NCBI GenBank assembly: GCA_049975525.1
Contig: JBNGCW010000001.1
Span: forward strand, 12,472-76,471
From: Anaerolineae bacterium
Lineage (GTDB): Bacteria; Chloroflexota; Anaerolineae; B4-G1; SLSP01
Direction of reading: 5' to 3'
DNA: 64,000 nt
Shown: piece by piece, positions 9,249 through 48,600 of the stretch
How positions within the stretch are numbered: position 1 is the first letter of the stretch
Layout of the letters: each line of letters begins with the position of its first letter
The notes under the pieces: generated by a model
The model's database searches: none
Seen by the model: only the letters and a program-made list of their open reading frames with translations
Told to the model about the DNA's origin: nothing
Program-made: the position numbers and the translations under genes

Positions 9249-9341
9249 TCTGCAGCAGGTCTCCCAAAAGGTCAAAGGGGGCCTACGTTTGTGGGGATGC
9301 TCAGTATACATTCACCCTTCACATGCAAAGGAGGTTTAACT

Positions 9342-9986
9342 ATGGAACAAAAGGCCATGCCGCTCATTGGTGATAAATTTCCGCAGATGACGGTTCAAAC
9401 TACTCATGGTACGATGACGTTACCGGATGCCTTCGAGGGGAAATGGTTCATCCTGTTCAGCCACCCGGCCGACTTCACGCCCGTCTGCACGACGGAGTTC
9501 TACGCTTTCCAGAAGCGCTATCCGGAGTTCCGCGAGCTCAACACCGAGCTGATCGGTCTGAGCATCGACCAGGTCTTCTCCCACATCAAGTGGACGGAGT
9601 GGATTGAGGAGAACCTGGATGCTGAGATCGAGTTTCCCATCATCGCCGATCACGGTGAAGTGGCGAACACGCTGGGGCTCATCCACCCCGGCGCCGGTTC
9701 TAGCACCGTGCGCGCCGTCTTCTTCGTCGATCCCGAAAGCACCATTCGGGCGATCCTTTACTATCCGGCCGAGCTGGGGCGCAACTTCGACGAGTTCCTG
9801 CGCATGATCAAGGCCTTCCAGGTCGCCGACGCGGAGAACGTCGCTATGCCGGCGAACTGGCCCGAGAACGAGCTGATCGGCGACCGCGTTATCGTCCCGC
9901 CTGCCAGCACCGTGGAGGAGGCCAAAGAGCGCCTGGAAACCTACGAATGCTACGATTGGTGGCTCTGCCACAAGCCCGTGGAGTGA
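9342..9986 (+). CDS. peroxiredoxin (AhpC/TSA family, 1-Cys / Prx6-like)
   Basis: FTPVCTTE peroxidatic-Cys motif; Prx6-type C-terminal extension. Start at ATG 9342 ([10 protein letters not shown]) with AAGGAGG RBS; the longer ORF from 9291 lacks an RBS. Confidence 0.85.
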
Positions 9987-10041
9987 CGTTTAGGCGCTGG
10001 AACGCTCCTTCTCCAAGTGAAGCGCTGAGTTGATAAAAGAG

Positions 10042-10090
10042 CGGGTCCCAGGTTGCAATGTCTCTTTCGACCTGGGACCCGTTTGTGGTG
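10042..10090 (+). terminator. rho-independent terminator-like hairpin downstream of the peroxiredoxin gene
   Basis: 11-bp perfect stem cgggtcccagg / cctgggacccg with 18-nt loop, followed by tttgtggtg. Confidence 0.5.
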
Positions 10091-10164
10091 GGATAGTCGG
10101 GAGCATGGGCTCATCTTCTGTGGGGTACGGTGAGGATGCCGACCCGGCCTGCTAATCTGGGCCG

Positions 10165-10971
10165 TTACATCTGCATGCGTGCGATAAGTTCGACCAGATC
10201 CTGCACCACATAGTCCGGTTGATGAGGCGCATCCGCCAAATCCGTGCGTTGCGTCTCCCCCGTCAGCACCAAAACCGTGGTCACGCCCGCTTGCCCCAGG
10301 GCGATGTCCGTGTAGAGTCGGTCGCCCACCATGCACATCTCCTCGATGGGCACACCGGTCTTCTCCTCTACGGCCTCGATCAGCGGTGGATTGGGCTTGC
10401 CGACGATGACGTCAGGGGACCGACCGGTGGAGGCTTCCACCAACGCCATGATAGCGCCGATGTCGGGCATGAACCCGTCCTCGGTGGGGCAGTTCACGTC
10501 GGGATGGGTGGCGATGTAGGGCCGTCCCGCGCGCACGAAGTCGCAGAGCCGCCGGATCTTCGCGTAGGTCAGCGTGGTGTCGAATCCCAGCACGACGAAC
10601 TCAGGATCTTCTTGTACCAGCGCAAAGCCATGGGCGGCGAACTCCTCTTCCAGTGCCGGCGTGCCCACCAGGTAGATGCGGGCGCCGGGGTGCTGCTTTT
10701 TGAGGTAGCGCGCCGTGGCTTCGCCGGAGGTGAAGATCTCTTTCTCGTCCACGTCCAGACCCAGGCGGCGGAGCTTGGCCGCGTAGCGTCCCCGGTGGCT
10801 GGAAGAGTTATTGGTCAGGAAGAGATAGCGGGTGCCGCGTCGGCGCAATAGCTGGAGAAAACGGCGCGCGCCGGGCAGCAGCTGCTCCCCCAGGAAGACG
10901 GTGCCGTCCATGTCCAACAGGAAGCAGCGAGCGCTCCTGAGCCGGTCGAGGGGCGCGTTGACATCGCTCAT
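10165..10971 (-). CDS. HAD-IIA family sugar-phosphate phosphatase (NagD-like)
   Basis: DMDGTVF motif I, LTNNSS motif II, GDRLYTDI motif IV. Start ATG overlaps the stop of the upstream isomerase (ATGA). Confidence 0.8.
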   Translation of the reverse strand: MSDVNAPLDRLRSARCFLLDMDGTVFLGEQLLPGARRFLQLLRRRGTRYLFLTNNSSSHRGRYAAKLRRLGLDVDEKEIFTSGEATARYLKKQHPGARIYLVGTPALEEEFAAHGFALVQEDPEFVVLGFDTTLTYAKIRRLCDFVRAGRPYIATHPDVNCPTEDGFMPDIGAIMALVEASTGRSPDVIVGKPNPPLIEAVEEKTGVPIEEMCMVGDRLYTDIALGQAGVTTVLVLTGETQRTDLADAPHQPDYVVQDLVELIARMQM

Positions 10972-12392
10972 CGCTGGAGATAGGGGGTGTAGCGCCGCGC
11001 GGCGATAGGTGCAACGTCCAGCCAGGCAGCCAGCTCCAGGCTTGCGGCGGTGAAGTCACCGTAGACCAGAGGGTAGTGGTGCTGGAAGTGCGCGTGCATC
11101 AGTGTTTCAACAAGCTCTGGCACCGTGACCGCCTTCCCGTTGAGGCGCAGGTCGGTCAGCCAGCCGCGACTGCCGACGTAGGGCGGCGCTTCGTCCGCAA
11201 TGCGTCCGTCGAGCACCAGCATGCGGGCGAAATCCGGCGTGAAACCCATGACGGTGACGGGTCCCGGACGTAGCACCAGGTCGTTGCGCAACCCCATGGG
11301 CGGCCCCTCGTAGCCGTCGAAGAGCCAGAGTGAGCCCATACGGGATCCGTTCTCGTCGGCCAGAACCGGCGCCGTCGGTCCACAGTGCCAGAAGAGGATG
11401 CGCTCCTTCTCCGGATCGACGCCGGAGAGGTCCATCAATGTGACGACGTCGTCGCTCATGTAGTGTAGCGCCAACATGTTCACCGCTGAAGGGACGTCGC
11501 CTTCACAGGCTGTGACCTGCGCGTCGGCGTTGAGCTGGCCCACCACGCTGCAAACGGCGAGGTGGTAATCCTCCTGGAAGCGTGGCCAACAGCTGACCGC
11601 CAGCGCGTCCAGGTTCAGCTCTTCGGCAAGGGCTTGATAAGCAAGGTAGACGCGCGCCGAGCGCTCCAGCGCCGTCTCCTGGCCGGCTTCAAACTCGGCG
11701 GCGCCCGCCCGCAACGTGCTCTGGGCCGCGGCGACGCGGTCGCGTCCCTGTTCCTGCGCGCGCTGCAGCACCGCATCGAACTCTACCGGCACGACCTTGA
11801 CACCCAGTTGCGCCCGCAGGTCGCGCGGATCCACGATCAGGTTGTCGAAGCCGGGCGCGACGCCGCCGATGAGCCCTACGCGCGCGTCGCATAGGTTGAC
11901 CAGGGCCGTCAAGGCGCGCACCGTTGCCTGGAGCCGCGCGTCGAAGAGCGGCTGGCCCGGTCGCCCGTAGAACCACTTGACCGGGCGGTCGTAGTTCAGG
12001 AGATACGAGCCGACGATGCTGTTGTACATGTTGGCGGCGACGAAGCTGTTGAGCGGCAATCCGCCTTCCTCGGTCGGGGGGCCCTCGGGCACGGCCCAAA
12101 GGCCCAGGCGGGCGTCCAGCGCCGTGAACTCGTAGATGAAAGCCCCCGGTCCAAAGGAGCTGCTCTGCAACAGCACGAAGTCGGCGTCCCAGGCGGCCAG
12201 CTCCGCTGCCGCAGCCTCTGCCTGGGTTTGAGTGTACATGCCTTGTTTGACGACGTGCAGCTCGAAGTCCAGTTGGGCCGCCAGGGCGTTTAACGCCTCG
12301 GCGCTGGCCGCGTATTGGGTTTCTTTGTCGCCGCGAAAGGGAGTACACATCAAACCGGCTACTCCCACTCTAAGTTTACGTTTCGTTCCCAT
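10968..12392 (-). CDS. L-arabinose / L-fucose isomerase superfamily protein (AraA/FucI-like)
   Basis: About 475 aa. N-terminal segments (FVLLQSSSFGP) and C-terminal segments (ILFWHCGPTAPVL, HAHFQHH) align with AraA landmarks from memory. Start chosen at ATG 12392 (MGTKRK...) with GAGGGGAGA RBS rather than the ORF-track start 12476. Confidence 0.5.
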   Translation of the reverse strand: MGTKRKLRVGVAGLMCTPFRGDKETQYAASAEALNALAAQLDFELHVVKQGMYTQTQAEAAAAELAAWDADFVLLQSSSFGPGAFIYEFTALDARLGLWAVPEGPPTEEGGLPLNSFVAANMYNSIVGSYLLNYDRPVKWFYGRPGQPLFDARLQATVRALTALVNLCDARVGLIGGVAPGFDNLIVDPRDLRAQLGVKVVPVEFDAVLQRAQEQGRDRVAAAQSTLRAGAAEFEAGQETALERSARVYLAYQALAEELNLDALAVSCWPRFQEDYHLAVCSVVGQLNADAQVTACEGDVPSAVNMLALHYMSDDVVTLMDLSGVDPEKERILFWHCGPTAPVLADENGSRMGSLWLFDGYEGPPMGLRNDLVLRPGPVTVMGFTPDFARMLVLDGRIADEAPPYVGSRGWLTDLRLNGKAVTVPELVETLMHAHFQHHYPLVYGDFTAASLELAAWLDVAPIAARRYTPYLQR

Positions 12393-12497
12393 GCTATGTC
12401 TCCCCTCGTTCCTTATCAACACGAGGCTGATGAGGTCGCCTCGCATGTTGGTCGTGGCTGCCGCGGGTGACGACACGCCCCGAAGTTGTCTGCCCTA

Positions 12498-14186
12498 CTA
12501 CGAACGCTCATGCTTGCAAAAGTACGCGCTGTGCGCCGGTGCATCCCACCAGACCGCCGTCTCGTCGTCCAGGGCGCAGAGGGAAAGTGAGAAGCCGCCT
12601 GTCTCCTGCGTGGTGAAGTACGAGTTGACGATTCCATCGGCGACGTGCAGCCCTCGGCGTTGCAGCGCATGGACCACACCCCGGTAGACGATGTGCAGCT
12701 CCATCATGGAGGTGCCGCCCGCGCCGTTGACGAAAGCCCAAAGCTTCTTGCCCTCGATCAGCGTGTCCAGATCCTCCACCAGGGGGGCGACAATCCGCTC
12801 GGCAATCTTGTCGGCGGGGAGGTGGGGGCCGCTGTAGACGCCGCTCTCGCCGTGCACGCCGGTGCCGATCTCGATATTGCCCGGCGAAAGGTTCATGAGC
12901 GGCTCGCCGGTGGCGGGGTGGGTGCCCGAGCGAACGGCGACGGAGAGGGTGGCGGTGCGTTCGTTGACGTGCTCGATGAGGGCGGCGACCTCGTCGAGCG
13001 AGGCGCCGGCCTCGGCGGCGGCGCCGCCGACCTTGAGGGCGAAGAGCAGGCCGCCCAGCCCACGTCGTTTGTGGTACGAGGCGCGCGGCGCCGTCGCCAC
13101 GTCGTCGGTCAGCAGTGTCATGCGTGTCTCGATGCCCAGCTGCTGCGCGCGATGCAGGGCCAGCCGCGCGTTGAGCACGTCGCCAGTGTGATTGGAGACC
13201 AGCAGCACCACACCCGCGCCGCGATTTGCTGCGGCGATGGCGTGGGCGATGCGCACGCCGGAAGCGCAGGTGAAGAGCGAGCCGTAAGCGTCGGCGTCGA
13301 GCAGACCTGCGCCGATGAAGCCGGCCATGGAGGGTGTGTGACCGCCGCCGTGTCCCATGGCCAGCCCGACTTTGCCTCTCGCTTTGGGCTGTGCCCGCGC
13401 CAGCACACCGGGGTGCTCGGTCAGGCGGAGGTGGTGCGGGTGTGCCCGCGCCAGGCCTTCCAGCTCCTCGCGGATCATCTCCGTTGGATCGTTGAGCAGC
13501 TTGCCCGGCGGCGGTGTGGTCGGATGTGCCACCTTCGCCGCCTCGTCCGGGGGGGCGGCCCGCACGCCGACGATCAGGTCGTGGCAGGCTTCCAGCAGGA
13601 GAGAGATGGAATGGGCGCCGGGGTCCTCGTGTCCGCGGCTGCGTTCTCCCAGAAAGCGGGCGCGACCGTGGGCCGCCCTCAGCGCCGCCGTACCCGCCGC
13701 GCCACGGCGGGCCGCTGCGAGTGCGGCCTCGAAAGCTGCGCGAGGCCCTCTTTCGACCTGCGCCCGGAGCGTCTGCACGGCGGGCGCCAGCGCGTCCAGC
13801 AACGTCTTCTCGCCCACCTCGGCCTGCCCTACGGCCTGTACCGCATCCTGACCCTGTTCGAAGGCACGGGTAACCGCCTGTAGATCGACGTGGGTTGCGT
13901 CTGCGAAAGTCGTGCCTGCCTGTGCAAGCAGCGCGGAGAAGAGCGGGCCGATGGCGCCGCCGGCTGTCTCGGCGAATGTGGCCGCTGCCGCGTCGAAAAG
14001 CGCCCCCAGATCCGTGAACTCTTCCGCCTGCACGCGCGCTTCGGCGGCCTGGAATGCCCGCGCCATGGTCGTTCCGTGGTCGCCGTCCCCGATGGCGCGA
14101 TCCAGGGCGTTCAGGCGCGCTGCGGCTTCCGCAAAGCGCTCCCGCCAGAGTGAGAAGAGCGCGCGGGCCTCGTGCAGCTCAAGCAT
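12498..14186 (-). CDS. dihydroxyacetone-kinase-family protein, single-chain DhaL (Dak2)-DhaK (Dak1) fusion in reversed domain order
   Basis: N-terminal ~200 aa is a DhaL/Dak2 ADP-binding domain (DGDHGTTM, GERSRGHEDPGA). C-terminal ~330 aa is a DhaK/Dak1 domain (KLLNDPTEMIREELEGL, GHGGGHTPSMAGFIGAGLLDA, LLVSNHTGDVLN). No stop between the domains. Start ATG 14186 with GGGAGG RBS overlaps the upstream gene's stop by 8 nt. Confidence 0.75.
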   Translation of the reverse strand: MLELHEARALFSLWRERFAEAAARLNALDRAIGDGDHGTTMARAFQAAEARVQAEEFTDLGALFDAAAATFAETAGGAIGPLFSALLAQAGTTFADATHVDLQAVTRAFEQGQDAVQAVGQAEVGEKTLLDALAPAVQTLRAQVERGPRAAFEAALAAARRGAAGTAALRAAHGRARFLGERSRGHEDPGAHSISLLLEACHDLIVGVRAAPPDEAAKVAHPTTPPPGKLLNDPTEMIREELEGLARAHPHHLRLTEHPGVLARAQPKARGKVGLAMGHGGGHTPSMAGFIGAGLLDADAYGSLFTCASGVRIAHAIAAANRGAGVVLLVSNHTGDVLNARLALHRAQQLGIETRMTLLTDDVATAPRASYHKRRGLGGLLFALKVGGAAAEAGASLDEVAALIEHVNERTATLSVAVRSGTHPATGEPLMNLSPGNIEIGTGVHGESGVYSGPHLPADKIAERIVAPLVEDLDTLIEGKKLWAFVNGAGGTSMMELHIVYRGVVHALQRRGLHVADGIVNSYFTTQETGGFSLSLCALDDETAVWWDAPAHSAYFCKHERS

Positions 14187-15024
14187 CGGCGACCTCCCGG
14201 CGGAGGAAAGCCGCGGCTGCCCGCGCGTCGGCATCCAGCGTGTCCGAGAGGGGCCGCCAGACGAAGACGTCACGTCCGACCTGGCCCTCGGGCCGCACGT
14301 AGGCCTCGACGACGAGCCAGCCCTCATAATCGATGGCATCCAACGCTCGACGTACCTCGTCCCAGGGGATGTGTCCGCGGCCGGGACAGCCGCGATGGTT
14401 GGCGGAGCAGTGGAGGTGTCCCAGCCGGGGGCCGGCCGCCGCGATGGCAGCGCCGATGTCCGGCTCCTCGATGTTCAGGTGGAAGGTGTCCAGGTGCAAT
14501 TTGACCGCCGGGCTGTCAATCTCTGCCAGCATCTGCAGGCCCTGGGTGACGGTGTTGAGCAGATAGCCCTCGAAGCGGTTCAATATCTCCAGGCAGAGCG
14601 TCACGCCCACGTCTTCGGCGATCCTGGCGACGTCTCGCAGTGCCGTGACGCAGCGATGACGGCGTGCGGTGTGGTCGTCCTCCGGGAAGGCGCCCCAGGG
14701 CGCGTAGGTGACGCCGCCGAGCACCGGGCTGCCCAGCGTGGCCGCACCCTCCAGGCAGGCGCGGAGGTGGGCGACGCCGGCGGCCCGCACCGTGGGGTCA
14801 GGATGGGTGATGTCGGTTTGGGGGCCTAACCCCGTGCCACAGGTGGCGCGGAGGCCCTGTGCGTCGAGGGTGGCCTTGAGCGCGGTGAAGTCCAGCGCCT
14901 CCGGCCGAAGCAGCGGCAACTCCGCGCCGTCGTAACCGGCGGCTGCGGCCCGTTTGAGGAGCGGCGTCAGCTCGTCGTCCCAGGCCGTCTGCCAATACGA
15001 AAGATGTATGCCTAGAGCTCGCAT
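14179..15024 (-). CDS. xylose-isomerase-like TIM-barrel enzyme resembling ketose 3-epimerases (D-tagatose / D-psicose 3-epimerase family)
   Basis: GIHLSYWQTAW N-terminus; candidate metal ligands in EILNRFE, LDTFH, GHLH, VEAYV match the DTEase/DPEase pattern from memory. Start ATG 15024 with GAGGA RBS; the TTG at 15048 is less likely. Confidence 0.6.
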   Translation of the reverse strand: MRALGIHLSYWQTAWDDELTPLLKRAAAAGYDGAELPLLRPEALDFTALKATLDAQGLRATCGTGLGPQTDITHPDPTVRAAGVAHLRACLEGAATLGSPVLGGVTYAPWGAFPEDDHTARRHRCVTALRDVARIAEDVGVTLCLEILNRFEGYLLNTVTQGLQMLAEIDSPAVKLHLDTFHLNIEEPDIGAAIAAAGPRLGHLHCSANHRGCPGRGHIPWDEVRRALDAIDYEGWLVVEAYVRPEGQVGRDVFVWRPLSDTLDADARAAAAFLRREVADA

Positions 15025-15114
15025 GGTATCCTCAATTTCAGACAACAACGCACCCCCGGGCGGTGATGCGCCTCTTGCCCGAGTGGGTGCGTTGTGTGTC
15101 GCTTGGCGAAAGCG

Positions 15115-16392
15115 TTAGAATCCCAGCAGCCGCGCCAGCCCGCCCACCACGATGGCGATGACGGAGAAGTCGTTGCCGCCGAAAGCGTTGATGAAGCCGG
15201 CCGCGGTGTTCTGGACGAAGAAGAGGGAGAGCGCCTGGAAGACGATGAGCAGGACGCCGCCGACGATGGAAGCCACGACTGTGCCGCGAATGCCGCCGGT
15301 CTTGTTGGCCAGGATCGCCGCCGGGCCTACGTCGAAGAAGGCGGCGACCACCAGGGGCAGGAGCACGTATTGGAAGCCCGCCAGGCCGAAGATGACCAGC
15401 GTGACCAGGGAAGCCGCCACGGCGATGGGGAAGCCGATGGCCAGGGCGTTGGGCGCATAGGGGAAGAGCATGGGGCAGTCCAAGGCCGGAATGGCGTCCG
15501 GGACGATTTTGTTGGCGATGCCGTGGAAGGCGGGCACGATCTCGCTCAACGTCATGCGCACGCCGGTGAGCAAGATGACCAGCCCCGCGCCGAAGCTGAT
15601 GGCCTGGTAGATCATCCACAGGATCCAGACGGCGGTGGAGCCGCCGGCGAACTGTCCCGCCGCCCAGAGCGGCCCGGCGAGGAGCCCCATGACGATGTAG
15701 ACCAGCAGCATGATGAGCGAGGTGGAAATCACCATCTCCTTGATGAACCCCCAGCGTTTGGGGATCTCCAGATCCTCGGTGGAGGTGGAGGGATCGCCGA
15801 CGAGCTTGCCGACTTCGGCGCCGATGATGGCCAGCACCGTGGTGGTGTGACCGATGGAGAACTCCCGTCCGCCGGTCACCTTTTCCACGTAGGGCATGAT
15901 GAGGGCCGGCAGCACCGTGGAGATGATGCCCAGGATGATGCTCCCCAGGATGATCAGGGGAACCCCGGTGATTTTGCCGCCGTCGGCCAGCGCGGCGGTG
16001 ACCATGAAGGCGTTCCAGAAGAGGATGTGCCCGGTGAGGAAGACGTACTTCAGCGGGGTGATGCGGGCCAGAAGCACGTTAACTAAAAAGCCGAAGACCA
16101 GCACCAGCACGATTTGCACCCCGTACTCACCAAGGAAGGTGGTGAAATCCACCGTAGCCTGGCCTTCGAGGGCGTAAACTTGGTTGAACATGGTGGAGAT
16201 GGGGGAGATGGCGCCGCTCAGTAGATCGACGGCGGTGAAGAGGATGATGACGCCGGCCATGGTCTTGATGGTGCCCTCGATGACCTCGTCGAATTCTTTG
16301 CGTTGGATCAGCAGACCGATGAGCGCCACGATCCCCAGCATAAAGGTGGGGAGGAGACGCGGAACTATCGCAAAAATAAGATTAATGTCCAT
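15115..16392 (-). CDS. PTS EIIC component, L-ascorbate (UlaA/SgaT) family
   Basis: 425-aa polytopic membrane protein with a UlaA-like N-terminus (MDINLIFAIVPRLLP...). Strong AGGAGG RBS. Confidence 0.75.
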   Translation of the reverse strand: MDINLIFAIVPRLLPTFMLGIVALIGLLIQRKEFDEVIEGTIKTMAGVIILFTAVDLLSGAISPISTMFNQVYALEGQATVDFTTFLGEYGVQIVLVLVFGFLVNVLLARITPLKYVFLTGHILFWNAFMVTAALADGGKITGVPLIILGSIILGIISTVLPALIMPYVEKVTGGREFSIGHTTTVLAIIGAEVGKLVGDPSTSTEDLEIPKRWGFIKEMVISTSLIMLLVYIVMGLLAGPLWAAGQFAGGSTAVWILWMIYQAISFGAGLVILLTGVRMTLSEIVPAFHGIANKIVPDAIPALDCPMLFPYAPNALAIGFPIAVAASLVTLVIFGLAGFQYVLLPLVVAAFFDVGPAAILANKTGGIRGTVVASIVGGVLLIVFQALSLFFVQNTAAGFINAFGGNDFSVIAIVVGGLARLLGF

Positions 16393-16456
16393 GGAAAACC
16401 TCCTGCTGTCTGTTGATATTTAAAGGATGGATGACCGTTTCGTTCTATAACATCGC

Positions 16457-18616
16457 TTACGTGTACCAGACGATCTCAAATACACCTCCTTTTTGCTTGA
16501 AGATGAGTTCAAGGTGCAGCTTGGTCTCTTCTACGGCGCCAGCGAGGGACGCTTGCGTGGGCCAGAGCTGCCGGATCTCTGCGCGTTCACCCCGCGCGGT
16601 CATCTCCAGCGTCGCTGTGATGCGCCCCGGCAGATAGTTGGCCACGAAGATCATGTCGCGCCGTCCGCGTCGCAGCAGATGGGGGTCGAGGGCGCGCCGT
16701 TCACCAGCGTAGAGGAGGCGCAGCTCCGGCCCTATCTCCAGACGACGCAAGACGCTTTCCAGCACGGGACGCAGAAGTGGACGTTCCGTCTCCACGTAGC
16801 CCGCGTCGGCCTGCGTGGCGAAGTAGAGGCCGTGTCCGGCCCCGTGATGCGCCAACGTCACCGCCGGCCGACCGTCCGGGAAAGTACCCAGCACCTCAGT
16901 CTCCGCCGCAGGTTGTACCACATCCCGCTTCAGGTGACCGGCATACGTCTGTCCTGCGAAGGTCACGGGCTCGTCGGCGCGGTCGTCGGCCGTCACCGCC
17001 CTCAGGCCGAAGGTGTCTTGGAGTGGGGGGATGGGGAGGGGATGATGATACCAACCGCGTTGGTCCAGGGTGGCACAGCGGGCGAAGCCGACCAGCAGAC
17101 CGCCGTCGGCGACGTACTCGCGCAGCGCGCCGGCCGTTTCCATGTCGAGCAGGCCCACCAGCGGCAGGGCGAGGGCTTTGTAACCGGCGGTCGCGCCCGC
17201 CAGCACCTGCATCGGCGTGACAAAGTCCACACGGTAGCCCAACTCCCAGAAGGCGCGGTAAGCGCCCCGTTGCGCCTGAAAGAGAACGCGCTCCTGATGG
17301 AGGCCCCGCAGGAAGATGGCGTTGGGTTTGGTCTCCAGAATCGCCACCTCGCCCTGGGGCACGTGAGCCTCCAGCAGGAAGTCGGCGTGGGTTTGGAGGA
17401 AACGCCCGAACTCGGCGGCGGCTGTATAGCGGGGCGTCGGTTCGCCGTCCAGCTCGACGAGCGCGCCCCAGCGGATGGGCTGGTAGGGCCACTCGCGCCA
17501 GGGCATGAAGAGGCCCAGTTTAACGTCGTGGCCCAGCGCTTCCAGGCCGTTGCGCAGGATCTCCTCCGGTCTGGTGTTGTGATCGGGGCCGAGCAACCAG
17601 CCGTTGATGGGACCGCTTTCCATCTCGTGCAGCCAGAAATCCGTGCCGGCGGCACGACTGACGCTGCGACCATGATCCAGGAAGATGGAGTTGTGCTCCG
17701 GTCGGGTTTTGAGCTTATCGCCGCTGCCGGGGTAGAGATCGTAGCCCACGTGATCCACGCGCTGCGCAATTTTCCATTGATCGAGGCCCATGAAGGTGCC
17801 GAAGCGGTCGTGGCCTTTGAAGTTGAAGGTGTTGACCGAGGTGGGGTGGGCGGGGTCGTAGCGCTTGAGCAGCGCGTGCTGCCAGCCGGCGAAGTCGGCG
17901 AAGGCCTCCTGCCAGAAGAGGCGCCAGTCGATCCAGCGGGTGACGCCGGACCAGGCATAGGGCAGTGCCTCAGGCGGTTCGACTTCCTCCCAGGCGTTGT
18001 AGTGGAAGGCGGTCGTGCTCCACGTCCAGGCGTGGGTCAGCGCCTCCAACGTCTCATATTTGGCCTGCACCCATTGCCGGAAACGTGCCTTGCAGTGCTT
18101 ACAATAGCAGTAGAGGTCCAGTTCGTCCTGACCGCGCGCGGGCATAAAGGGGAAACCCATCTCGTTGGAGATCTGCCAGCCGAAGTGGTTGGGTTGGGTA
18201 GCGGCGAATTTGGCCAGTGCCGTGGTGTACCGGCGTGCCTCGTCTAGGAAGCCCGGGTGGTGGATGCAAGCCCAGTGGTAGGAGGCCGCCAGCGGATAGC
18301 GTTCACCGCGACTGGAGAGCAGCCGTACGTCCGGATATTTCCGTGCCAGCCAGAGCGGCGGGCAGGCGGTGCCGTTGCTCAGCAGCACGCGGATGCCGTG
18401 ATCGGCGGCAGCGCGATAGAAACGCTCCAACAGATCCAGGCGGAGCTCGCCCTCCTGCGGCTCGATGCGGTCCCAGGAGCCGTGTACGTCCCCGATGCGG
18501 ACCAGGTTCATGCCTGCCGCCTGCATCCTGCAGAGGTCTTGGGCCCAGGTCGCCTCAGGATAGATCAGCGGTGAATAGGAGGCCCCGTAGGGATAGGTGT
18601 GCCCCGTTTCGGACAT
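16457..18616 (-). CDS. glycoside hydrolase family 42 beta-galactosidase (alpha-L-arabinopyranosidase activity possible)
   Basis: GH42 TIM-barrel motifs NEMG (acid/base Glu) and the Cys cluster YCYCKHCKARF; trimerisation and C-terminal domains follow. Start taken at ATG 18616 (MSETGHTY...); the ORF-track extension to 19417 overlaps EIIB and EIIA in another frame. Confidence 0.85.
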   Translation of the reverse strand: MSETGHTYPYGASYSPLIYPEATWAQDLCRMQAAGMNLVRIGDVHGSWDRIEPQEGELRLDLLERFYRAAADHGIRVLLSNGTACPPLWLARKYPDVRLLSSRGERYPLAASYHWACIHHPGFLDEARRYTTALAKFAATQPNHFGWQISNEMGFPFMPARGQDELDLYCYCKHCKARFRQWVQAKYETLEALTHAWTWSTTAFHYNAWEEVEPPEALPYAWSGVTRWIDWRLFWQEAFADFAGWQHALLKRYDPAHPTSVNTFNFKGHDRFGTFMGLDQWKIAQRVDHVGYDLYPGSGDKLKTRPEHNSIFLDHGRSVSRAAGTDFWLHEMESGPINGWLLGPDHNTRPEEILRNGLEALGHDVKLGLFMPWREWPYQPIRWGALVELDGEPTPRYTAAAEFGRFLQTHADFLLEAHVPQGEVAILETKPNAIFLRGLHQERVLFQAQRGAYRAFWELGYRVDFVTPMQVLAGATAGYKALALPLVGLLDMETAGALREYVADGGLLVGFARCATLDQRGWYHHPLPIPPLQDTFGLRAVTADDRADEPVTFAGQTYAGHLKRDVVQPAAETEVLGTFPDGRPAVTLAHHGAGHGLYFATQADAGYVETERPLLRPVLESVLRRLEIGPELRLLYAGERRALDPHLLRRGRRDMIFVANYLPGRITATLEMTARGERAEIRQLWPTQASLAGAVEETKLHLELIFKQKGGVFEIVWYT

Positions 18617-18630
18617 GAGATGTCTCAGCC

Positions 18631-18921
18631 TTATTCCTCTATCAGCGATTGGATAACGGGAAGGCCCTTTTCTTCGATCTCGCTTTCGTTCATGAAGTTG
18701 TCGATGAGGACGATGGGTTGCTCGATGCCTTCGAAGGTGTTGAGCAGCTCCTTGGAGGTGAAGACGACGTCGAAATCCTGGCCTCTGGCTGTGGTCGCAT
18801 CGGCGCAGAAAGTCTTGGCCGAAAGGCCGTGTTTCCTCAGCAGGCCGTCCAATTTCAGGCGCAGGACCATGCTGGAGCCCAATCCAAATCCACAGACGAT
18901 CATGATCTTCGGTTTTGCCAC
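18631..18921 (-). CDS. PTS EIIB component (UlaB/SgaB type)
   Basis: 96 aa with phospho-Cys motif IMIVCGFGLGSS near the N-terminus. Confidence 0.8.
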   Translation of the reverse strand: MAKPKIMIVCGFGLGSSMVLRLKLDGLLRKHGLSAKTFCADATTARGQDFDVVFTSKELLNTFEGIEQPIVLIDNFMNESEIEEKGLPVIQSLIEE

Positions 18922-18990
18922 GTAATCCTCCTACTGGGGGGCGGTTTTCGCCGCCGCCCTTTGGGTGAGTCATAAGGGTCGGTTGTGTGC

Positions 18991-19434
18991 TTAGAGTTCG
19001 TCCATCAATGCCATCACCTCGTCTACGGAGGTGGCCGTCATCAGTTGTTGACGATGGGTAGGGTGATCCAGGAAAAGTGCGAGTTCCTGGAGCATGTTCA
19101 GGTGTTTCTCTTTGTCCACGGCGCCAAAGGCGATGACCAGGGAGACAGGATCGTTGCGCTCGGATCCGAAGGAGACCGGGGGGTCGAGCGTCACCAGGCT
19201 CAGGGCGATGTGCTTGACGCCATCCTCGGGGCGGGCGTGGAGGAGGGCCAGGCCCGGTGCCAACACCATGTAGGGTCCGAGCTCGCGAACGGCGTTGATC
19301 ATGGCCTCGGTGTAGCGTGGCTCGCAGGCTTCGATCTCTTCCAGCAAGCCGCCGGCCAGACGTACGGCTTCTTCCCAGTTCTTCACTGCGACGTGCAAAC
19401 GGATACATCGGGAACATAAATGATCAGATAGCAT
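18991..19434 (-). CDS. PTS EIIA component (EIIA-2 / mannitol-fructose-ascorbate type)
   Basis: 147 aa; phosphorylatable His in LALLHARPE; fold-typical length. Confidence 0.7.
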   Translation of the reverse strand: MLSDHLCSRCIRLHVAVKNWEEAVRLAGGLLEEIEACEPRYTEAMINAVRELGPYMVLAPGLALLHARPEDGVKHIALSLVTLDPPVSFGSERNDPVSLVIAFGAVDKEKHLNMLQELALFLDHPTHRQQLMTATSVDEVMALMDEL

Positions 19435-19438
19435 AGGA

Positions 19439-20389
19439 TTATTTCTCGTGTAAAATCTGTTGTGCTGTCCAGGCGTCGGTGATCAGGACGTTAAAGAGCC
19501 GTCCTCGTAAGGCGGCGAGCAGCACCGGAACCTTTTCGGGGCCGCCGGCCATCACCAGGCTGAGCGGAATGCGGGCGATATCTTCCAGGCTCAGCCCGAT
19601 GATGCGCTCGCTGATAGGGTTGAGGACCGGCTTTCCTTGGGCGTCGAAGTAGTGGCCCAGCATGTCGCCCACAGCCCCGCGCTCCTGCAGGAAGCGGAGA
19701 TCCTCGTCGCTCAGGTGACCGTGGAGGTAGAGGAGTGCCGTTTCGTCCACCGGCCCGACGCTTTGAATGAGGATGTCGCTGTGACGGGCGCGCTCCAGGG
19801 CCTGGGCCACCGCCGGTTCCTGAACGATGGAATCGTGACTGGCCGGGTTGGAAGCAAGCATCGGGGCGTAGATGTACTCGGCGCGGCCGCCGGCCAGCTC
19901 GGCCATCTTCGAGGTCACGTTGTACGCCATCATCTCCCCGGAATGCGCGGCAGCTCCGCCGACCACCTCGGCGAAGGCGCAGTCGATGGGGGTGGGGGGC
20001 GCGAAGTAGTCTGGCAGGCGGGAGATCGTGCGTCCTGTCCCCAGCCCTACGCGCATGCCTTCCTTGAGGTGCGCCGTCAACCAGTCGGCCGTGGTGCGGG
20101 CCAGCGCGGCGTAACGCGCCTCCGTGGCCTCGGGTTCCACCGCCAGGGTAACCAGGGCGTCGTGCAGTTCGAAGCGTTGACGCAGCGCGCTCTCCAGCTC
20201 CAGGTTTTCCACCCCGGAGGTGTCGATGTGAAATTGGACGACGCCGCGCTTTCGCGCCCGCTGGAGCAAACGGTTGATGGTCACTCGAGAGAGGTTCAGC
20301 CGATCACCGATCTCCTGCTGTGTCAAGCCTTCCTTGTAGTACATCCAGGCCGCCCGGGCCATGACCTGTTGTTCATCACTGTAATTCAT
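19439..20389 (-). CDS. SorC-family sugar-binding transcriptional regulator
   Basis: N-terminal HTH (LTQQEIGDRLNLSRVTINRLLQRARKRGVV) and C-terminal sugar-phosphate-binding domain. Start chosen at ATG 20389 (MNYSDEQ...) with GGGAAG RBS; the ORF track extends to 20428. Confidence 0.75.
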   Translation of the reverse strand: MNYSDEQQVMARAAWMYYKEGLTQQEIGDRLNLSRVTINRLLQRARKRGVVQFHIDTSGVENLELESALRQRFELHDALVTLAVEPEATEARYAALARTTADWLTAHLKEGMRVGLGTGRTISRLPDYFAPPTPIDCAFAEVVGGAAAHSGEMMAYNVTSKMAELAGGRAEYIYAPMLASNPASHDSIVQEPAVAQALERARHSDILIQSVGPVDETALLYLHGHLSDEDLRFLQERGAVGDMLGHYFDAQGKPVLNPISERIIGLSLEDIARIPLSLVMAGGPEKVPVLLAALRGRLFNVLITDAWTAQQILHEK

Positions 20390-20409
20390 GGACTTCCCGT
20401 TGGGAGATG

Positions 20410-20421
20410 TTACATATGTAA
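20410..20421. promoter_or_regulatory. perfect 12-nt palindrome TTACATATGTAA upstream of the SorC gene
   Basis: Lies 21-32 nt upstream of the preferred SorC start codon; candidate autoregulatory operator. Confidence 0.35.
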
Positions 20422-20683
20422 TGCACATTTAACTAATGTTCATTATGCGGACAAAAGCCGACGGAGGATAATGTCAAACCTCACCTGTATCCTATGACGT
20501 TTGACGTATTATACTGAAGTGACGGCATCAGGGTTCAGGCAGGTGTACTACATCTTCGGATACCTTGAAAATAGCCCGTCTGCACACTCTCGGATGCAAT
20601 CCGGCATAACAGATAAGCGCAGGTGCGTCGCCCCTTATTCCGTAACTTTAGCGGAAGCCGCGTCCGAGAAGCATGCCGGAGAG

Positions 20684-22465
20684 CTAGCGGCCGACTGGAG
20701 CGTTCTTGTTGAAGGTGACCTCTTCTGCTGCGGGCAGGGAAAACCAGAAGCAGCTGCCCTTTCTCTCTTCGCTCTCGACGCCCACCTGTCCTCCCAACTT
20801 TTCCATGATCCGCTGGACAATGGAAAGTCCCAGACCGTGGCCCTCGGCTCGTGTCTGGTTTAGTCGCTCGAACTGGGTGAAAAGTTTCTCCCGCTCTTCG
20901 GGTGTGAGTCCTTCCCCGTTATCTCGAACCCAAAAGTGGACCCATTTTTGGCCCTCGCGGGTGAGGGGTGTAACTCCGACCTCTATCTGCGGGGGGGTTC
21001 CACCGTATTTGATGGCGTTGCTGAGGTAATTGACCCACACTTCTTCTATCCAGGGGCCGTAACCGATGCAGAGAGGCCACTGCTTCTGAACGCTGATGTG
21101 CGCGTGGTGATCGTGGATCATATCTTCCAGGCGGCGAAGAGCGTTGTCGACGACCGGTCCCATCTTCAGCGTGCGGGTCTTCACGTCGTCGACCTTGCGC
21201 ACGCTGGCAAGCAACAAAAGCTCCTCGATGATGTTGGCCATCTTGCGGGCGTTGCGCCCGATGATCTGCAGGTTGCTGACCAGCGTCTCCTCGGGCAGCT
21301 TAGCGTGCCGGCTTTCCAGCAGTTGGGCGTAACCCACCAGCGCCGACAAAGGGTTCTTGAGGTCGTGGGCGACGGTGTGAGCAAAGGCGTCCAATTCCGC
21401 GTTGCTTACCTCCAACTCGGTGGCGTAGCGCTGCAGGGCAGCTTCGGCGATGATACGCTGGGTGATGTCGTGGAGGATCAGCAGTCGGGCGTTGACCTGT
21501 CCCAGGTGGTTCTTCAGGGTGGAGATTTGCAGGTCGTAATAGCGTTCTTCCTCGGGCAGTTGGATCCGCAGTTCCGTCTTTTGATCCCCGGTCGCTTCTA
21601 TCTGGTGCAACAGCTGCGGTTGGTCCTGGATCAATTTGTCCACGGGTTGACCGAGGGCCTTGTGTGGGGGGAGACCTAAAATTTTCTGCATGGTAGGATT
21701 GAAGTCCAGGATGCGTCCTTGCGCGTCCAGGAGGAGCATCCCGTCATCCATGTTGTCGATGATCTTCTCCCGCGCGACGGGTACCAGGTCCAGCAGCTGG
21801 TAGCGGAAAAGCGCCCAGCCGTAGATGAGGCCGGTGATGGTGAAGCCCACGTGGGTGAGGGGCATCTCCACCCACTGGAAGGTGACCAGGATGTTGGGGA
21901 TCAGGGGGGCGATGGAGCCGACGAGGAGCGCCAGTGCCTGCAGGCGGTAGATTTGAAAAGTGCGTATCGCCTGGCGCAGGAGCAGATACATGCCCACCAC
22001 GATGAGTACGTAGTTGTAGAAAGCGTGGATGTAGAACCAAGGACCGTTGATCCGGTGGGGGATCAGCAGTACCCCTTCTCGCCGGAACGTCAGGGACTTG
22101 AAAAAAAGGTGATGGAAGGGATTGGTCCAGTTGAGGGCCAGGCTGACGGACGGCACCAACAGCAGAAGCAGGAGCGTCCGGCGGGAGATCCAGGCGCGGT
22201 TATCTGTGTAGGAGCAGGCGAAGACGAACCACGCGATAGGCAGGAGGATGATGGCGCTGAAGTAGACTTTGTCGATGAACTGTGCGATGTTCAAGTTGGG
22301 GCTGACGACCTGAAGGGCGTAGCCTCCGGACCAGAGCGTAGCAAAGGTCATCAGCCAGGCGAAGCTTGCGGCGCTGTGCGTCCTCCGATGTCGCCAGGCG
22401 TAGAGCGCAGCAACGGCGGTGATCAAGGTGGAAAGCAGAGGACTGACGAAGTACAAAAAGTACAT
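20684..22465 (-). CDS. membrane sensor histidine kinase (7TM N-terminal domain, PAS, HisKA, HATPase)
   Basis: Seven N-terminal TM helices, PAS segment, H-box HDLKNPLSAL, N/G boxes NAIKYG, DNGEGL, GHGLGLSIV. No cognate response regulator adjacent. Confidence 0.8.
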   Translation of the reverse strand: MYFLYFVSPLLSTLITAVAALYAWRHRRTHSAASFAWLMTFATLWSGGYALQVVSPNLNIAQFIDKVYFSAIILLPIAWFVFACSYTDNRAWISRRTLLLLLLVPSVSLALNWTNPFHHLFFKSLTFRREGVLLIPHRINGPWFYIHAFYNYVLIVVGMYLLLRQAIRTFQIYRLQALALLVGSIAPLIPNILVTFQWVEMPLTHVGFTITGLIYGWALFRYQLLDLVPVAREKIIDNMDDGMLLLDAQGRILDFNPTMQKILGLPPHKALGQPVDKLIQDQPQLLHQIEATGDQKTELRIQLPEEERYYDLQISTLKNHLGQVNARLLILHDITQRIIAEAALQRYATELEVSNAELDAFAHTVAHDLKNPLSALVGYAQLLESRHAKLPEETLVSNLQIIGRNARKMANIIEELLLLASVRKVDDVKTRTLKMGPVVDNALRRLEDMIHDHHAHISVQKQWPLCIGYGPWIEEVWVNYLSNAIKYGGTPPQIEVGVTPLTREGQKWVHFWVRDNGEGLTPEEREKLFTQFERLNQTRAEGHGLGLSIVQRIMEKLGGQVGVESEERKGSCFWFSLPAAEEVTFNKNAPVGR

Positions 22466-24783: not shown

Positions 24784-26013
24784 ATGAGCGCCCTGATCAA
24801 ATTACTGTTGGTCTTCGTCGGTATAGTGATGCTGTTGAGCCGCCACTGGAACTTGGCGGTGGTGTTGGTGATTGCTTCGGCGGCCATCGGGCTGCTCTTT
24901 GGATATCCTCTGTCCGAGGTGGCACGAGACGCGCTCCGGGCTTCCATCGACGTGTTGACGCTGCGCCTGACGATGATTGTCGTGCTCATCATGGTGCTCA
25001 GCGAGTTGTTGCGTCGGACGGGGGGGCTGCAGGGGATGGTGGAGGCGCTTCAGGCGTTGATCCCCGGTCCCGTCGCCATCGCCGCGCTGCCCGCCTTAGT
25101 AGGGTTGCTACCCATGGTCGGCGGGGCTATGTTCTCGGCGCCCATGGTCGAGGAGATAGGGGCGCGACTGGATGCCGATGCGGAGCGCAAGACCTTCATC
25201 AACTACTGGTTCCGCCACGTCTGGGAGTACGTCTTCCCGCTCTATCCCTCCATGATGTTGGCGGCGGCGCTGCTGGAGATGACCACGTTGCAGCTGGCCT
25301 ACGCCACCTGGCCCCTGGCGATAACGGCTGTTGTCGGCGGCGCGGTGTTTGGCCTCTGGGGGATAGGATCAGACGCCGGAGAGAAAATAGAGGGACCGAC
25401 GGTGCAACATCCGGTCCGTAGCTTGGTGGACAGCATCTGGCCCATCGTTCTGGTCCTCGGTCTTTCTCTGGTGTTGCCCCTGGACGAGCGCTTGCGTCTT
25501 ATCGTCAGTTTGTTGGTGACCATCGCGTTGCTCATGGTGGTGAAGCGGGTGCCCGCCTCTGAACTGGGGACGATTTTGCGGGAACGGATTCCCTGGAAGA
25601 CCGTCGCCGTTATCTTCGGCGCGCTGATCTTCCGCCGCGTCCTCGACGAGAGCAGCGCCGTCGTCGCCGTCTCCCGCGATTTGACCGCGCTGAAGGTCCC
25701 GCCGGCGCTGATCGCCTTCAGCGTGCCGTTCATTGCCGGGTTGTTGACAGGCCTGGCCTCCGCGGCTTTCAGCATCGGCTTTCCCGTGGTCGCGCCGCTG
25801 CTGATCGACGGAGCCGGTAGCATGACGTCTGCCTGGGCAGCATGGCTGATGGCAGGCGGGTTTCTGGGCGTGATGCTCTCTCCGCTTCATCTCTGCCTGT
25901 CCCTCACGCGCGTCTATTTTCGTGCCGAGTGGGGGCCTATCTACCGCCGCATGGCGCCCGCTGTCTTGAGTGTTGCCCTTGTGGCCGGGTTACTTTTGTT
26001 GGTCCGGGTGTAG
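24784..26013 (+). CDS. polytopic membrane protein of unknown function (DUF401-like putative permease)
   Basis: About 410 aa with 10-12 TM helices. Start ATG 24784 (MSALIKLLL...); a candidate promoter TTGGAC-18-TATACT lies ~70 nt upstream. Confidence 0.45.
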   Translation: MSALIKLLLVFVGIVMLLSRHWNLAVVLVIASAAIGLLFGYPLSEVARDALRASIDVLTLRLTMIVVLIMVLSELLRRTGGLQGMVEALQALIPGPVAIAALPALVGLLPMVGGAMFSAPMVEEIGARLDADAERKTFINYWFRHVWEYVFPLYPSMMLAAALLEMTTLQLAYATWPLAITAVVGGAVFGLWGIGSDAGEKIEGPTVQHPVRSLVDSIWPIVLVLGLSLVLPLDERLRLIVSLLVTIALLMVVKRVPASELGTILRERIPWKTVAVIFGALIFRRVLDESSAVVAVSRDLTALKVPPALIAFSVPFIAGLLTGLASAAFSIGFPVVAPLLIDGAGSMTSAWAAWLMAGGFLGVMLSPLHLCLSLTRVYFRAEWGPIYRRMAPAVLSVALVAGLLLLVRV

Positions 26014-26056
26014 CCGAACCTGCGAGGACTCTTTTTTGAGGAAAAGGGGGTGGATC

Positions 26057-33169: not shown

Positions 33170-33343
33170 GAACCAATGAGAAACGTCAAAACCGTACTGT
33201 TTTCATAGGTGCGTTGCGCCTCTGGATCGAAAGCGACAATGTGCTGCCACAACGGTGTTGCGCCTTAGCGAAGGTCGTGTATGATGAGAACAATTCTATG
33301 TACATTTAGGGCCTTGTCAACGGGCAGGCCAAGGAGGTTTGGG

Positions 33344-48581: not shown

Positions 48582-48600
48582 GGGATCTCTCCTTATCGAG

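Follow-up and report, generated by a model that had tools for sequence, protein, structure and literature searches.

A conserved phosphotransferase-system operon of Anaerolineae that probably encodes an undescribed sugar pathway

The lactose phosphotransferase system (PTS) and tagatose-6-phosphate pathway of Staphylococcus and Lactococcus (lacABCDFEG) joins PTS uptake of a glycoside to a cytoplasmic glycosidase, an isomerase, a 1-kinase and an aldolase. Here we describe a nine-gene operon with a similar plan in a 64,000-nucleotide stretch of DNA from an Anaerolineae bacterium (contig JBNGCW010000001.1; the whole stretch is called the window below). Its parts come from other protein families. 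The EIIC is of the Asc/Gat type instead of the Lac type, the glycosidase has a GH42 rather than a GH1 origin, the isomerase has the AraA fold whereas LacAB is RpiB-like, and the kinase belongs to the Dak and not the PfkB family. The aldolase of related operons is class II rather than class I, and a ketose 3-epimerase and a HAD phosphatase are added. Searches with Pfam and NCBIfam found no GH1 phospho-beta-galactosidase, LacAB, LacC or LacD among the nine genes.

Other described systems resemble parts of the operon. The FucI-FucK-FucA, L-rhamnose and AraA routes use an AraA/FucI-fold metal isomerase, a kinase and an aldolase that releases dihydroxyacetone phosphate (DHAP), as does the route proposed here. 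However, the isomerase of the operon is 12-16% identical to AraA/FucI and has no Pfam match, its kinase is a Dak and not an FGGY protein, the aldolase is of the fructose-bisphosphate/tagatose-bisphosphate (FBP/TBP) class II type and not FucA or RhaD, a 3-epimerase is inserted, and uptake is by a PTS followed by a glycosidase. The L-ascorbate PTS regulon (UlaABC) has EIIA, EIIB and EIIC proteins of the same PTS superfamily, but UlaD, UlaE, UlaF and UlaG are missing from the operon, and its TIM barrel is of the free-ketose 3-epimerase and not the UlaE type. With the dihydroxyacetone (Dha) kinases, namely DhaKLM, ATP-dependent Dak and the erythrulose kinases LerK and DerK, the operon kinase has in common the Dak1/Dak2 domains and the covalently binding His with its partners. 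In contrast to them it is permuted (L then K), lacks a DhaM and stands in a sugar operon without glycerol or Dha genes. SftI, from the sulfo-transaldolase pathway of Firmicutes, is the sole characterised member of the Pfam-less superfamily to which the operon isomerase belongs. The two proteins align over their full length at ~26% identity with common Glu, Asp, His and His residues, whereas the sulfoquinovosidase, transaldolase and sulfolactaldehyde enzymes of the SftI pathway have no counterpart in the operon. Lastly, AraL of Bacillus subtilis (HAD-IIA) and MapP of Enterococcus are accessory sugar-phosphate phosphatases that are co-transcribed with sugar routes. MapP, which differs in fold from HAD-IIA, dephosphorylates a PTS product ahead of an enzyme that needs the free disaccharide.

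The superfamilies are known. What is new is the way in which the genes are combined, the permutation of the Dak domains, the remodelling of the GH42 subsite and a family of isomerases outside Pfam. Judged from its sequences, the operon probably encodes a previously undescribed sugar pathway of anaerobic Chloroflexi; in the literature on SftI, on PTS and ascorbate genes of Anaerolineae and on Dak, 3-epimerase and erythrulose kinases we found no published description, in agreement with a first-pass annotation that had called the route a candidate undescribed one. Our tentative reading, which we hold to be plausible though short of probable, is a self-contained PTS glycoside operon in which the released sugar would pass through the isomerase, the 3-epimerase, the Dak-type kinase and an aldolase. 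This reading is favoured because the gene order is conserved and the spacing tight, because the active-site residues of the epimerase and Dak and the putative ones of the isomerase are kept, and because relatives have an aldolase after the isomerase and co-encode HPr and Enzyme I. The GH42 protein keeps its catalytic residues and has lost those that read O4 and O6 of galactose, which also speaks for it. That the intermediates are free sugars is favoured because homologues of the isomerase outside PTS operons sit with free-sugar kinases and ABC importers.

The operon and its conservation in Chloroflexi

Nine co-directional open reading frames (ORFs) are present on the minus strand of the window between 10165 and 20428. 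In gene order, with the match or model behind each assignment, they are:

19439-20389, minus strand: SorC/DeoR-type regulator with HTH and sugar-binding domain (PF04198, 1.4e-64)
18991-19434, minus strand: PTS EIIA of the mannitol/fructose/ascorbate type (PF00359, 1e-29)
18631-18921, minus strand: PTS EIIB of the Lac/Cel/Asc type, GTG start (PF02302, 3.4e-9)
16457-18616, minus strand: GH42-fold retaining glycosidase, 719 aa, cytoplasmic, no signal peptide (PF02449, 1e-61; PF08532, 5e-19)
15115-16392, minus strand: PTS EIIC of the ascorbate/galactitol superfamily (PF03611, 1.2e-96)
14179-15024, minus strand: ketose 3-epimerase, AP_endonuc_2 TIM barrel of the D-psicose/D-tagatose 3-epimerase family (PDB 7x7w, 5e-59)
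12498-14186, minus strand: Dak-family kinase, one chain DhaL-linker-DhaK, 562 aa (PF02734, 1.1e-46; PF02733, 2.5e-90)
10968-12392, minus strand: metal-dependent aldose-ketose isomerase of the AraA/FucI fold, 474 aa (structure model)
10165-10971, minus strand: HAD-IIA sugar-phosphate phosphatase of the NagD/AraL type (PF13344 and PF13242)

To find related loci, we searched a single genome of each species with a profile of the isomerase, which gave 79 loci, and mapped the nine window proteins onto them by tblastn. The order SorC-EIIA-EIIB-GH42-EIIC-TIM barrel-Dak-isomerase was identical in 19 of the 31 Chloroflexi loci whose isomerase is at least 45% identical to that of the window, and also in the more distant loci L029 and L030 (41-45%). 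These eight core genes thus keep their order across 21 genomes, over an isomerase identity of 41-82%, and a JGI contig has the identical order from independent gene calls. Two of the carriers are cultured isolates, Ornatilinea apprima P3M-1 (L011) and Bellilinea caldifistulae GOMI-1 (L022). For the window isomerase, a protein with 100% identity is encoded in a metagenome-assembled genome (MAG) from Anaerolineae. As the same order recurs in so many loci, the arrangement is not due to chance; the first-pass annotation had named a search for such a conserved neighbourhood as one check on its proposal. The synteny also rules out an artefact of assembly or annotation. None of the three clades to which the GH42, Dak and isomerase proteins belong extends beyond Chloroflexi, and they diverge in parallel, to ~51-60% identity. 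This suggests that they were inherited vertically as one unit, and fits an operon passed on vertically within the class Anaerolineae.

Several relatives carry further genes. HPr and Enzyme I follow the HAD gene in four loci (L022 from Bellilinea, L016, L014 and L010), both stand beside SorC in L020, and in L017 HPr alone is found just before the available sequence stops. In the 64-kb window, tblastn found neither HPr nor Enzyme I. Since the relatives add aldolase, HAD, HPr and Enzyme I after the isomerase, we infer that the ancestral unit is made up of regulator, EIIA, EIIB, glycosidase, EIIC, epimerase, Dak, isomerase, aldolase, HAD, HPr and Enzyme I.

In the window, which has a G+C content of ~62%, the gaps from SorC onwards are 4, 69, 14, 64 and 90 nucleotides; the TIM barrel and Dak genes then overlap by 8 nucleotides, 105 nucleotides separate Dak from the isomerase, and the isomerase and HAD genes overlap by 4 nucleotides (ATGA). 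Gene starts were chosen by an upstream ribosome-binding site and by the length of homologues. The starts in the program-made ORF list are too long for the TIM barrel, Dak and isomerase, and the listed ORF of 986 aa (16457-19417) is the GH42 gene with a spurious extension at its upstream end. The first-pass annotation had described a tightly spaced co-directional unit of nine genes, and the same ORFs, gaps and overlaps were recovered here. Its family calls hold for every gene, by Pfam and NCBIfam or, for the isomerase, by structure model only, and it was right that canonical ula, ara and tagatose-6-phosphate genes are absent from the operon, which also lacks canonical dha and lac genes. Without these defining genes, as judged with Pfam and NCBIfam, the unit is ruled out as a canonical operon of the ula, ara, dha, lac or tagatose type. 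A scan of 9800-20800 for promoters and terminators gave sites no more numerous than in shuffled sequence, and the sole Rfam match was a distant tRNA, with no RNA motif at the operon.

Isomerase, epimerase and kinase

The isomerase has no match in Pfam at E 0.01, the Arabinose_Isome and Fucose_iso models included. A sequence search of the PDB found nothing, and a profile search of the PDB found FucI alone, at E 0.15. Its sole NCBIfam match is the sulfoquinovose isomerase SftI (NF048012; 1.8e-45), near full length, at 155 bits where the cut-off is 700. An AlphaFold model built from 47 homologues reached a pLDDT of 93, and Foldseek placed it with L-arabinose isomerases (TM 0.76-0.82, E to 2.5e-26, 12-16% identity), followed by L-fucose isomerases (E 1e-17). 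With a TM of ~0.8 to L-arabinose isomerases, the earlier description as AraA/FucI-like holds by fold alone. In a sequence alignment, Glu297, Asp321, His336 and His438/439, the putative metal and catalytic residues, are invariant across the superfamily; their spacing resembles that of residues E306, E333, H350 and H450 of Escherichia coli AraA. The isomerase family comprises ~350 clusters at 50% identity (E <1e-30). SftI isomerises 6-sulfo-glucose and interconverts fructose 6-phosphate and glucose 6-phosphate as well (PMC7491151), so that 6-anionic sugars are possible substrates for members of the family. In the alignment, we saw no motif specifically common to the isomerase and SftI-like proteins that could serve as an anion or phosphate signature.

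The genomic context of homologues at 34-41% identity, from Firmicutes, Spirochaetes and Thermotogae, is one of free-monosaccharide importers and kinases. The homologue accompanies a ROK kinase and a CUT2 ABC system in L054, L044 and L034, and in L033 and L034 it adjoins a GatZ-like gene. L035, from a Lachnospiraceae MAG, has it beside a genuine D-psicose 3-epimerase together with a class II aldolase, a SorC regulator and an FGGY kinase. An Anaerolineaceae orthologue with 57% identity (L012:63-14329) sits in a different cluster, with a CUT1 ABC transporter, an IU-nucleoside-hydrolase-like gene, SorC, a Zn-dehydrogenase, two FGGY kinases and a 2-hydroxyacid dehydrogenase, which may be a riboside or polyol route. 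These contexts indicate that a module of isomerase and kinase, with or without epimerase and aldolase, exists without a PTS and with a sugar kinase in place of the Dak.

A separate arrangement was seen in Firmicutes (L075:3312-13401; also L063, L065, Anaerotruncus), where the order is AP_endonuc_2-FGGY-DhaK-DhaL-FGGY-isomerase-like-RpiB-RpiR-Tpi-like. The isomerase-like protein is distant (23% identity) and has no Pfam match, and the cluster resembles erythritol and tetrulose pathways. Clusters of this type show that Dak kinases are repeatedly linked to this isomerase superfamily. For the operon itself, a tetrulose (C4) route of this kind is unlikely, since neither RpiB nor a Tpi-like gene is present and cleavage by the aldolase would yield formaldehyde.

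The TIM barrel had been called ketose-3-epimerase-like, and this is well supported by ~45% identity to solved D-psicose/D-tagatose 3-epimerases (7x7w, 4pgl, 3vni; 5e-59 to 6e-55) and by kept catalytic residues: the Glu/Asp/His/Glu metal site and the binders of O1-O3 (Glu156/His186/Arg215 type). Its hydrophobic distal pocket is mostly kept. It scores 243.7 bits against the NCBIfam D-psicose 3-epimerase model NF051856, under the cut-off of 300, and 31 bits on the UlaE-type model. Invariant changes specific to the clade are Tyr6 to His and one Arg to His, and no Arg or Lys is gained. The epimerase thus probably acts on a non-phosphorylated ketose, and as changes such as Tyr6 to His are invariant in the clade, this ketose may be one other than psicose or tagatose.

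The fusion of DhaL and DhaK in one kinase, also noticed earlier, is confirmed: PF02734 matches residues 82-253 of the long ORF and PF02733 follows, in the order L to K, the reverse of known fused Daks. Members of the clade are all ~555-560 aa long and come from Chloroflexi only. The chain retains equivalents of E. coli DhaK His56 (the hemiaminal His), Asp109 and His218. PTS-dependent DhaK is the nearest match of the K domain, and the DhaL half scores above the cut-off of TIGR02365, a model for PTS-dependent DhaL (164 bits, cut-off 138). The best full-length model is the two-domain PRK14479, at 467 bits with a cut-off of 492.

These matches bear on what the kinase phosphorylates. It could be a triose kinase, acting on dihydroxyacetone or glyceraldehyde from the cleavage of a ketose-1-phosphate while the other enzymes form the sugar route, and the PTS, rather than ATP, might then supply its phosphate (from HPr, EIIA or EIIB to DhaL-bound ADP). 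Cleavage of a ketose-1-phosphate leaves an unphosphorylated triose that needs a kinase, and mammalian triokinase acts after aldolase B in this way. A triose substrate would agree with the retention of all Dha-binding residues of E. coli DhaK and with the affinity of the K domain, and a PTS donor with the TIGR02365 match and the HPr and Enzyme I genes of relatives. However, the DhaM domain belongs to the mannose-type EIIA family, and no DhaM-type gene is found in the operon or the related loci examined; the sole EIIA of the operon is a PF00359 protein. The full-length similarity to PRK14479 also argues against a PTS-driven form, since known fused two-domain Daks are ATP-dependent. Moreover, the operon would have no other kinase to make the ketose phosphate unless the PTS made ketose-1-phosphate, and this would strip the isomerase and epimerase of free substrate. 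In the Lachnospiraceae MAG, an FGGY sugar kinase stands in the place of the Dak. We therefore consider a role restricted to trioses decidedly unlikely. The same evidence divides the suggestion of the first-pass annotation that the EIIA feeds phosphate to the Dak. The EIIA family and the lack of a DhaM-type gene speak against it, while the DhaL match and the HPr and Enzyme I genes of relatives leave it some support.

Glycosidase and phosphotransferase components

The GH42 protein is ~25-30% identical to solved GH42 enzymes. Its acid/base N-E and nucleophile E align with those of 8IBR and 1KWG, the Cys4 zinc site is kept, and so are Asp285, Tyr287 and Trp326 (BiBga42A numbering). With this machinery intact, the clade GH42 is predicted to be a competent retaining glycosidase. 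In BiBga42A, Arg121 and Glu366 read the axial O4 of galactose, Arg121 reads O3 too, O6 is read jointly by His369 and Trp326, Phe356 provides ring stacking and Trp200' contacts O3 through water; every GH42 enzyme of known structure keeps these galactose-reading residues (PMC10688820). When 40 members of the clade were aligned by MAFFT with three enzymes of known structure, Arg121 is replaced by Ser, Glu366 by Leu or Ile, Phe356 by Met and Trp200' by Thr or Ser, and His369 is deleted, in all 40 members. This argues against the galactoside cleavage that the first-pass annotation had suggested: an ordinary galactose or L-arabinopyranose is very unlikely as the glycon, and the enzyme is probably not a canonical beta-galactosidase. 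The glycon might instead have another configuration at C3 or C4, be deoxygenated or be phosphorylated at C6.

The best NCBIfam match of the EIIA is ascorbate IIA, at 112 bits and below the cut-off of 187, and its putative phospho-His lies in LALLHARPEDG as read off the translation. The putative phospho-Cys of the EIIB lies in MIVCGFGLGSS, and its gene is preceded by the ribosome-binding site AGGAGG. The operon encodes no transporter other than the EIIC, which passes NF006919 (PTS ascorbate transporter subunit IIC) at 406 bits with a cut-off of 380 and falls far under the E. coli UlaA model NF009549 (290 bits, cut-off 890). The SorC regulator, for which there is an alternative upstream ATG at 20428, opens the conserved string in 21 loci and scores below the cut-offs for B. 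subtilis-type DeoR and LsrR.

A dedicated PTS next to a remodelled glycosidase raises the question of whether the whole route runs on phosphorylated sugars, in the way of the lactose-PTS/tagatose-6-phosphate pathway (LacFE-LacG-LacAB-LacC-LacD) but with non-orthologous proteins. The PTS would phosphorylate O6 of the glycon, and the GH42-like protein would be a 6-phospho-glycosidase. The SftI-like isomerase would convert aldose-6-phosphate to ketose-6-phosphate, with 3-epimerisation where needed, the Dak would add a 1-phosphate, and a ketose-bisphosphate aldolase would release DHAP and glyceraldehyde 3-phosphate, leaving the HAD protein as an overflow valve. Glycosidases of PTS operons normally take phospho-glycosides, and the losses of the O6-binding His369 and the acidic Glu366 in the GH42 clade resemble the Glu-to-Ser switch of GH1 6-phospho-glycosidases. 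HPr and Enzyme I are co-encoded in relatives, SftI accepts 6-sulfo as well as 6-phospho sugars, and the reaction order is mirrored by the gene order. Against these points, Arg121 is lost from the GH42 pocket where a gain might be looked for, the epimerase is near free-ketose 3-epimerases and has gained no Arg or Lys for a phosphate, and the isomerase is far from SftI, at 155 bits with a cut-off of 700 and without an anion-binding motif seen in common. We also know of no Dak that acts on a hexulose-6-phosphate. On balance, we regard phosphorylated intermediates throughout, the chief alternative to our reading, as possible but rather unlikely.

A further step would be to see in the operon a complete non-orthologous replacement of a pathway of the lactose-PTS/tagatose-6-phosphate type, with a kinase that is maybe driven through HPr and EIIA/EIIB. 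We rate this as unlikely. If true, it would bring together three firsts: a phospho-glycosidase of the GH42 fold, a sugar-6-phosphate isomerase of the AraA fold, and a kinase of the Dak family that takes a C5/C6 ketose or ketose-6-phosphate. A Dak energised via HPr and EIIA/EIIB would be the first link of a non-mannose-type PTS branch to this kinase family.

End of the route and its significance

In 14 of the 31 close loci, as well as in L029 and L030, the gene directly after the isomerase encodes a class II aldolase (PF01116) that retains its zinc ligands. AgaY, FBP aldolases, KbaY and the ketose-1-phosphate aldolase YdjI resemble it to an equal degree. No class II aldolase was found in the 64-kb window by tblastn. 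The HAD-IIA phosphatase (TIGR01460, 155 bits, cut-off 100; DxDGT motif in LLDMDGTVF, read off the translation) is present in 13 of the 31 loci, right after the isomerase or after the aldolase. It follows the aldolase in aldolase-bearing relatives, and in the sub-lineage of the window (L004-L006, L032) it lies directly 3' of the isomerase. As an aldolase follows the isomerase in relatives, the route would end in aldol cleavage, and the HAD protein is more readily seen as an accessory or early step than as the end of the route.

Two variations of the aldolase region were noted. The aldolase is often fused to a C-terminal, putatively redox-active C_GCAxxG_C_C domain (L011:11439-12740, L022:11437-12738, L008:11441-12679), which has no obvious role in an aldolase. 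In L008, from an Anaerolineae MAG, the aldolase is followed by genes for a RuBisCO-like protein (PF00016, 384 aa) and a URO-D-like protein (L008:12759-15012), which hints at a variant downstream chemistry.

The aldolase also bears on the pathway first proposed for the operon. There, GH42 would cleave a beta-galactoside or L-arabinopyranoside, galactose would be converted to tagatose or arabinose to ribulose, the ketose would be 3-epimerised and phosphorylated by the Dak, and the HAD enzyme would dephosphorylate the product. Its family assignments are correct, and enzymes of the AraA type do convert both L-arabinose and D-galactose. However, the GH42 residues that read galactose or arabinopyranose are replaced throughout the clade, a kinase followed by a phosphatase yields nothing, and the conserved aldolase between isomerase and HAD in relatives sets another end point. 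Known class II aldolases of the FBP/TBP type cleave 3S ketose phosphates, and 3-epimerised tagatose and L-ribulose are 3R ketoses that they leave uncleaved. This scheme is thus highly improbable.

The route that we tentatively prefer can be set out as follows. For the PTS, protein families and putative phosphorylation sites are observed, as are families and active-site residues (putative ones for the isomerase) for the steps from isomerase to aldolase, whose order and substrates as given here are our proposal. A SorC-type repressor would control the unit. EIIA, EIIB and the ascorbate/galactitol-type EIIC would import and phosphorylate a small glycoside, which the cytoplasmic GH42-fold retaining glycosidase would split. 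The PTS phosphate could be carried on one half and leave as a sugar phosphate, or the HAD-IIA enzyme could take it off first, in the manner of MapP. In Enterococcus, MapP dephosphorylates maltose-6'-phosphate, a PTS product, which is a precedent for an early phosphatase step. The AraA-fold isomerase would turn the freed aldose into a ketose, the 3-epimerase would invert C3 of that ketose, the DhaL-DhaK kinase would phosphorylate the primary hydroxyl beside the keto group, and the class II aldolase encoded in the operons of relatives would split the product into DHAP and an aldehyde. Because known class II aldolases of the FBP/TBP type cleave 3S ketose phosphates, the epimerase would most simply make a 3S ketose from the 3R ketose of the isomerase. 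Such a conversion, from a psicose or ribulose type to a fructose or xylulose type, would point to sugars of the ribo or allo type or to their deoxy forms.

Several points weigh against this route through free sugars. Removal of a phosphate derived from phosphoenolpyruvate by the HAD enzyme would be wasteful. The activities of SftI, the closest relative of the isomerase to have been characterised, agree better with a phosphorylated substrate. To our knowledge, Dak-family kinases act on C3-C4 carbonyl compounds only, so that activity on C5/C6 ketoses would be new, and we know of no glycoside transport by an EIIC of the ascorbate/galactitol type. The window copy lacks aldolase, HPr and Enzyme I, which leaves the pathway incomplete there. 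Finally, the aldolase of relatives passes the generic ketose-bisphosphate model TIGR00167 (228 bits, cut-off 216). This match favours a route on phosphorylated sugars throughout, and the loss of the operon aldolase in the sub-lineage of the window would be tolerable if the product were FBP-like; however, such a route leaves the HAD protein without a clear role. Comparisons of epimerase, isomerase and aldolase yielded no decisive phosphate-binding signature that separates free-sugar from phospho-sugar models.

The surroundings of the operon in the window are unrelated to it: a histidine kinase gene lies upstream (20684-22465, minus strand) and a convergent peroxiredoxin gene downstream (9291-9986, plus strand). 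Elsewhere, the window encodes a protein of 2013 aa with an alpha-amylase catalytic domain, an fn3 domain and DUF11 repeats, probably a cell-surface amylase (36185-42226, minus strand). An ORF of 1410 aa without a Pfam match at E 1e-5 (44508-48740, minus strand) overlaps by ~140 nucleotides the 3' end of the next large ORF, which encodes an adenylate/guanylate cyclase-AAA_16-TPR (MalT-like) signalling protein of 1375 aa (48601-52728, minus strand). A YhgA-like putative transposase (PF04754; 29009-30094, plus strand) is the sole gene of mobile-element type seen in the window. Two further genes are not linked to the operon: a second, weak AP_endonuc_2 TIM barrel (E 6e-8; 33281-34096, plus strand) and a GHL15 and CBM_4_9 protein (25970-28150, plus strand).

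In anaerobic digesters, in sediments and in the subsurface, Anaerolineae are among the most abundant fermenters, and tests of their carbohydrate metabolism are few. The operon is among the most conserved sugar loci of this class, and HPr and Enzyme I genes adjoin it in several genomes. The two cultured carriers make the prediction directly testable. Ketose 3-epimerases and AraA-type isomerases drive the production of rare sugars, so that partners with new specificities would be of practical value. If the proposed scheme is true, it would represent a new catabolic route from isomerase through 3-epimerase and Dak kinase to class II aldolase. It would also add a new specificity to GH42, widen the substrate range of Dak kinases and give a function to a Pfam-less family of AraA-fold isomerases.

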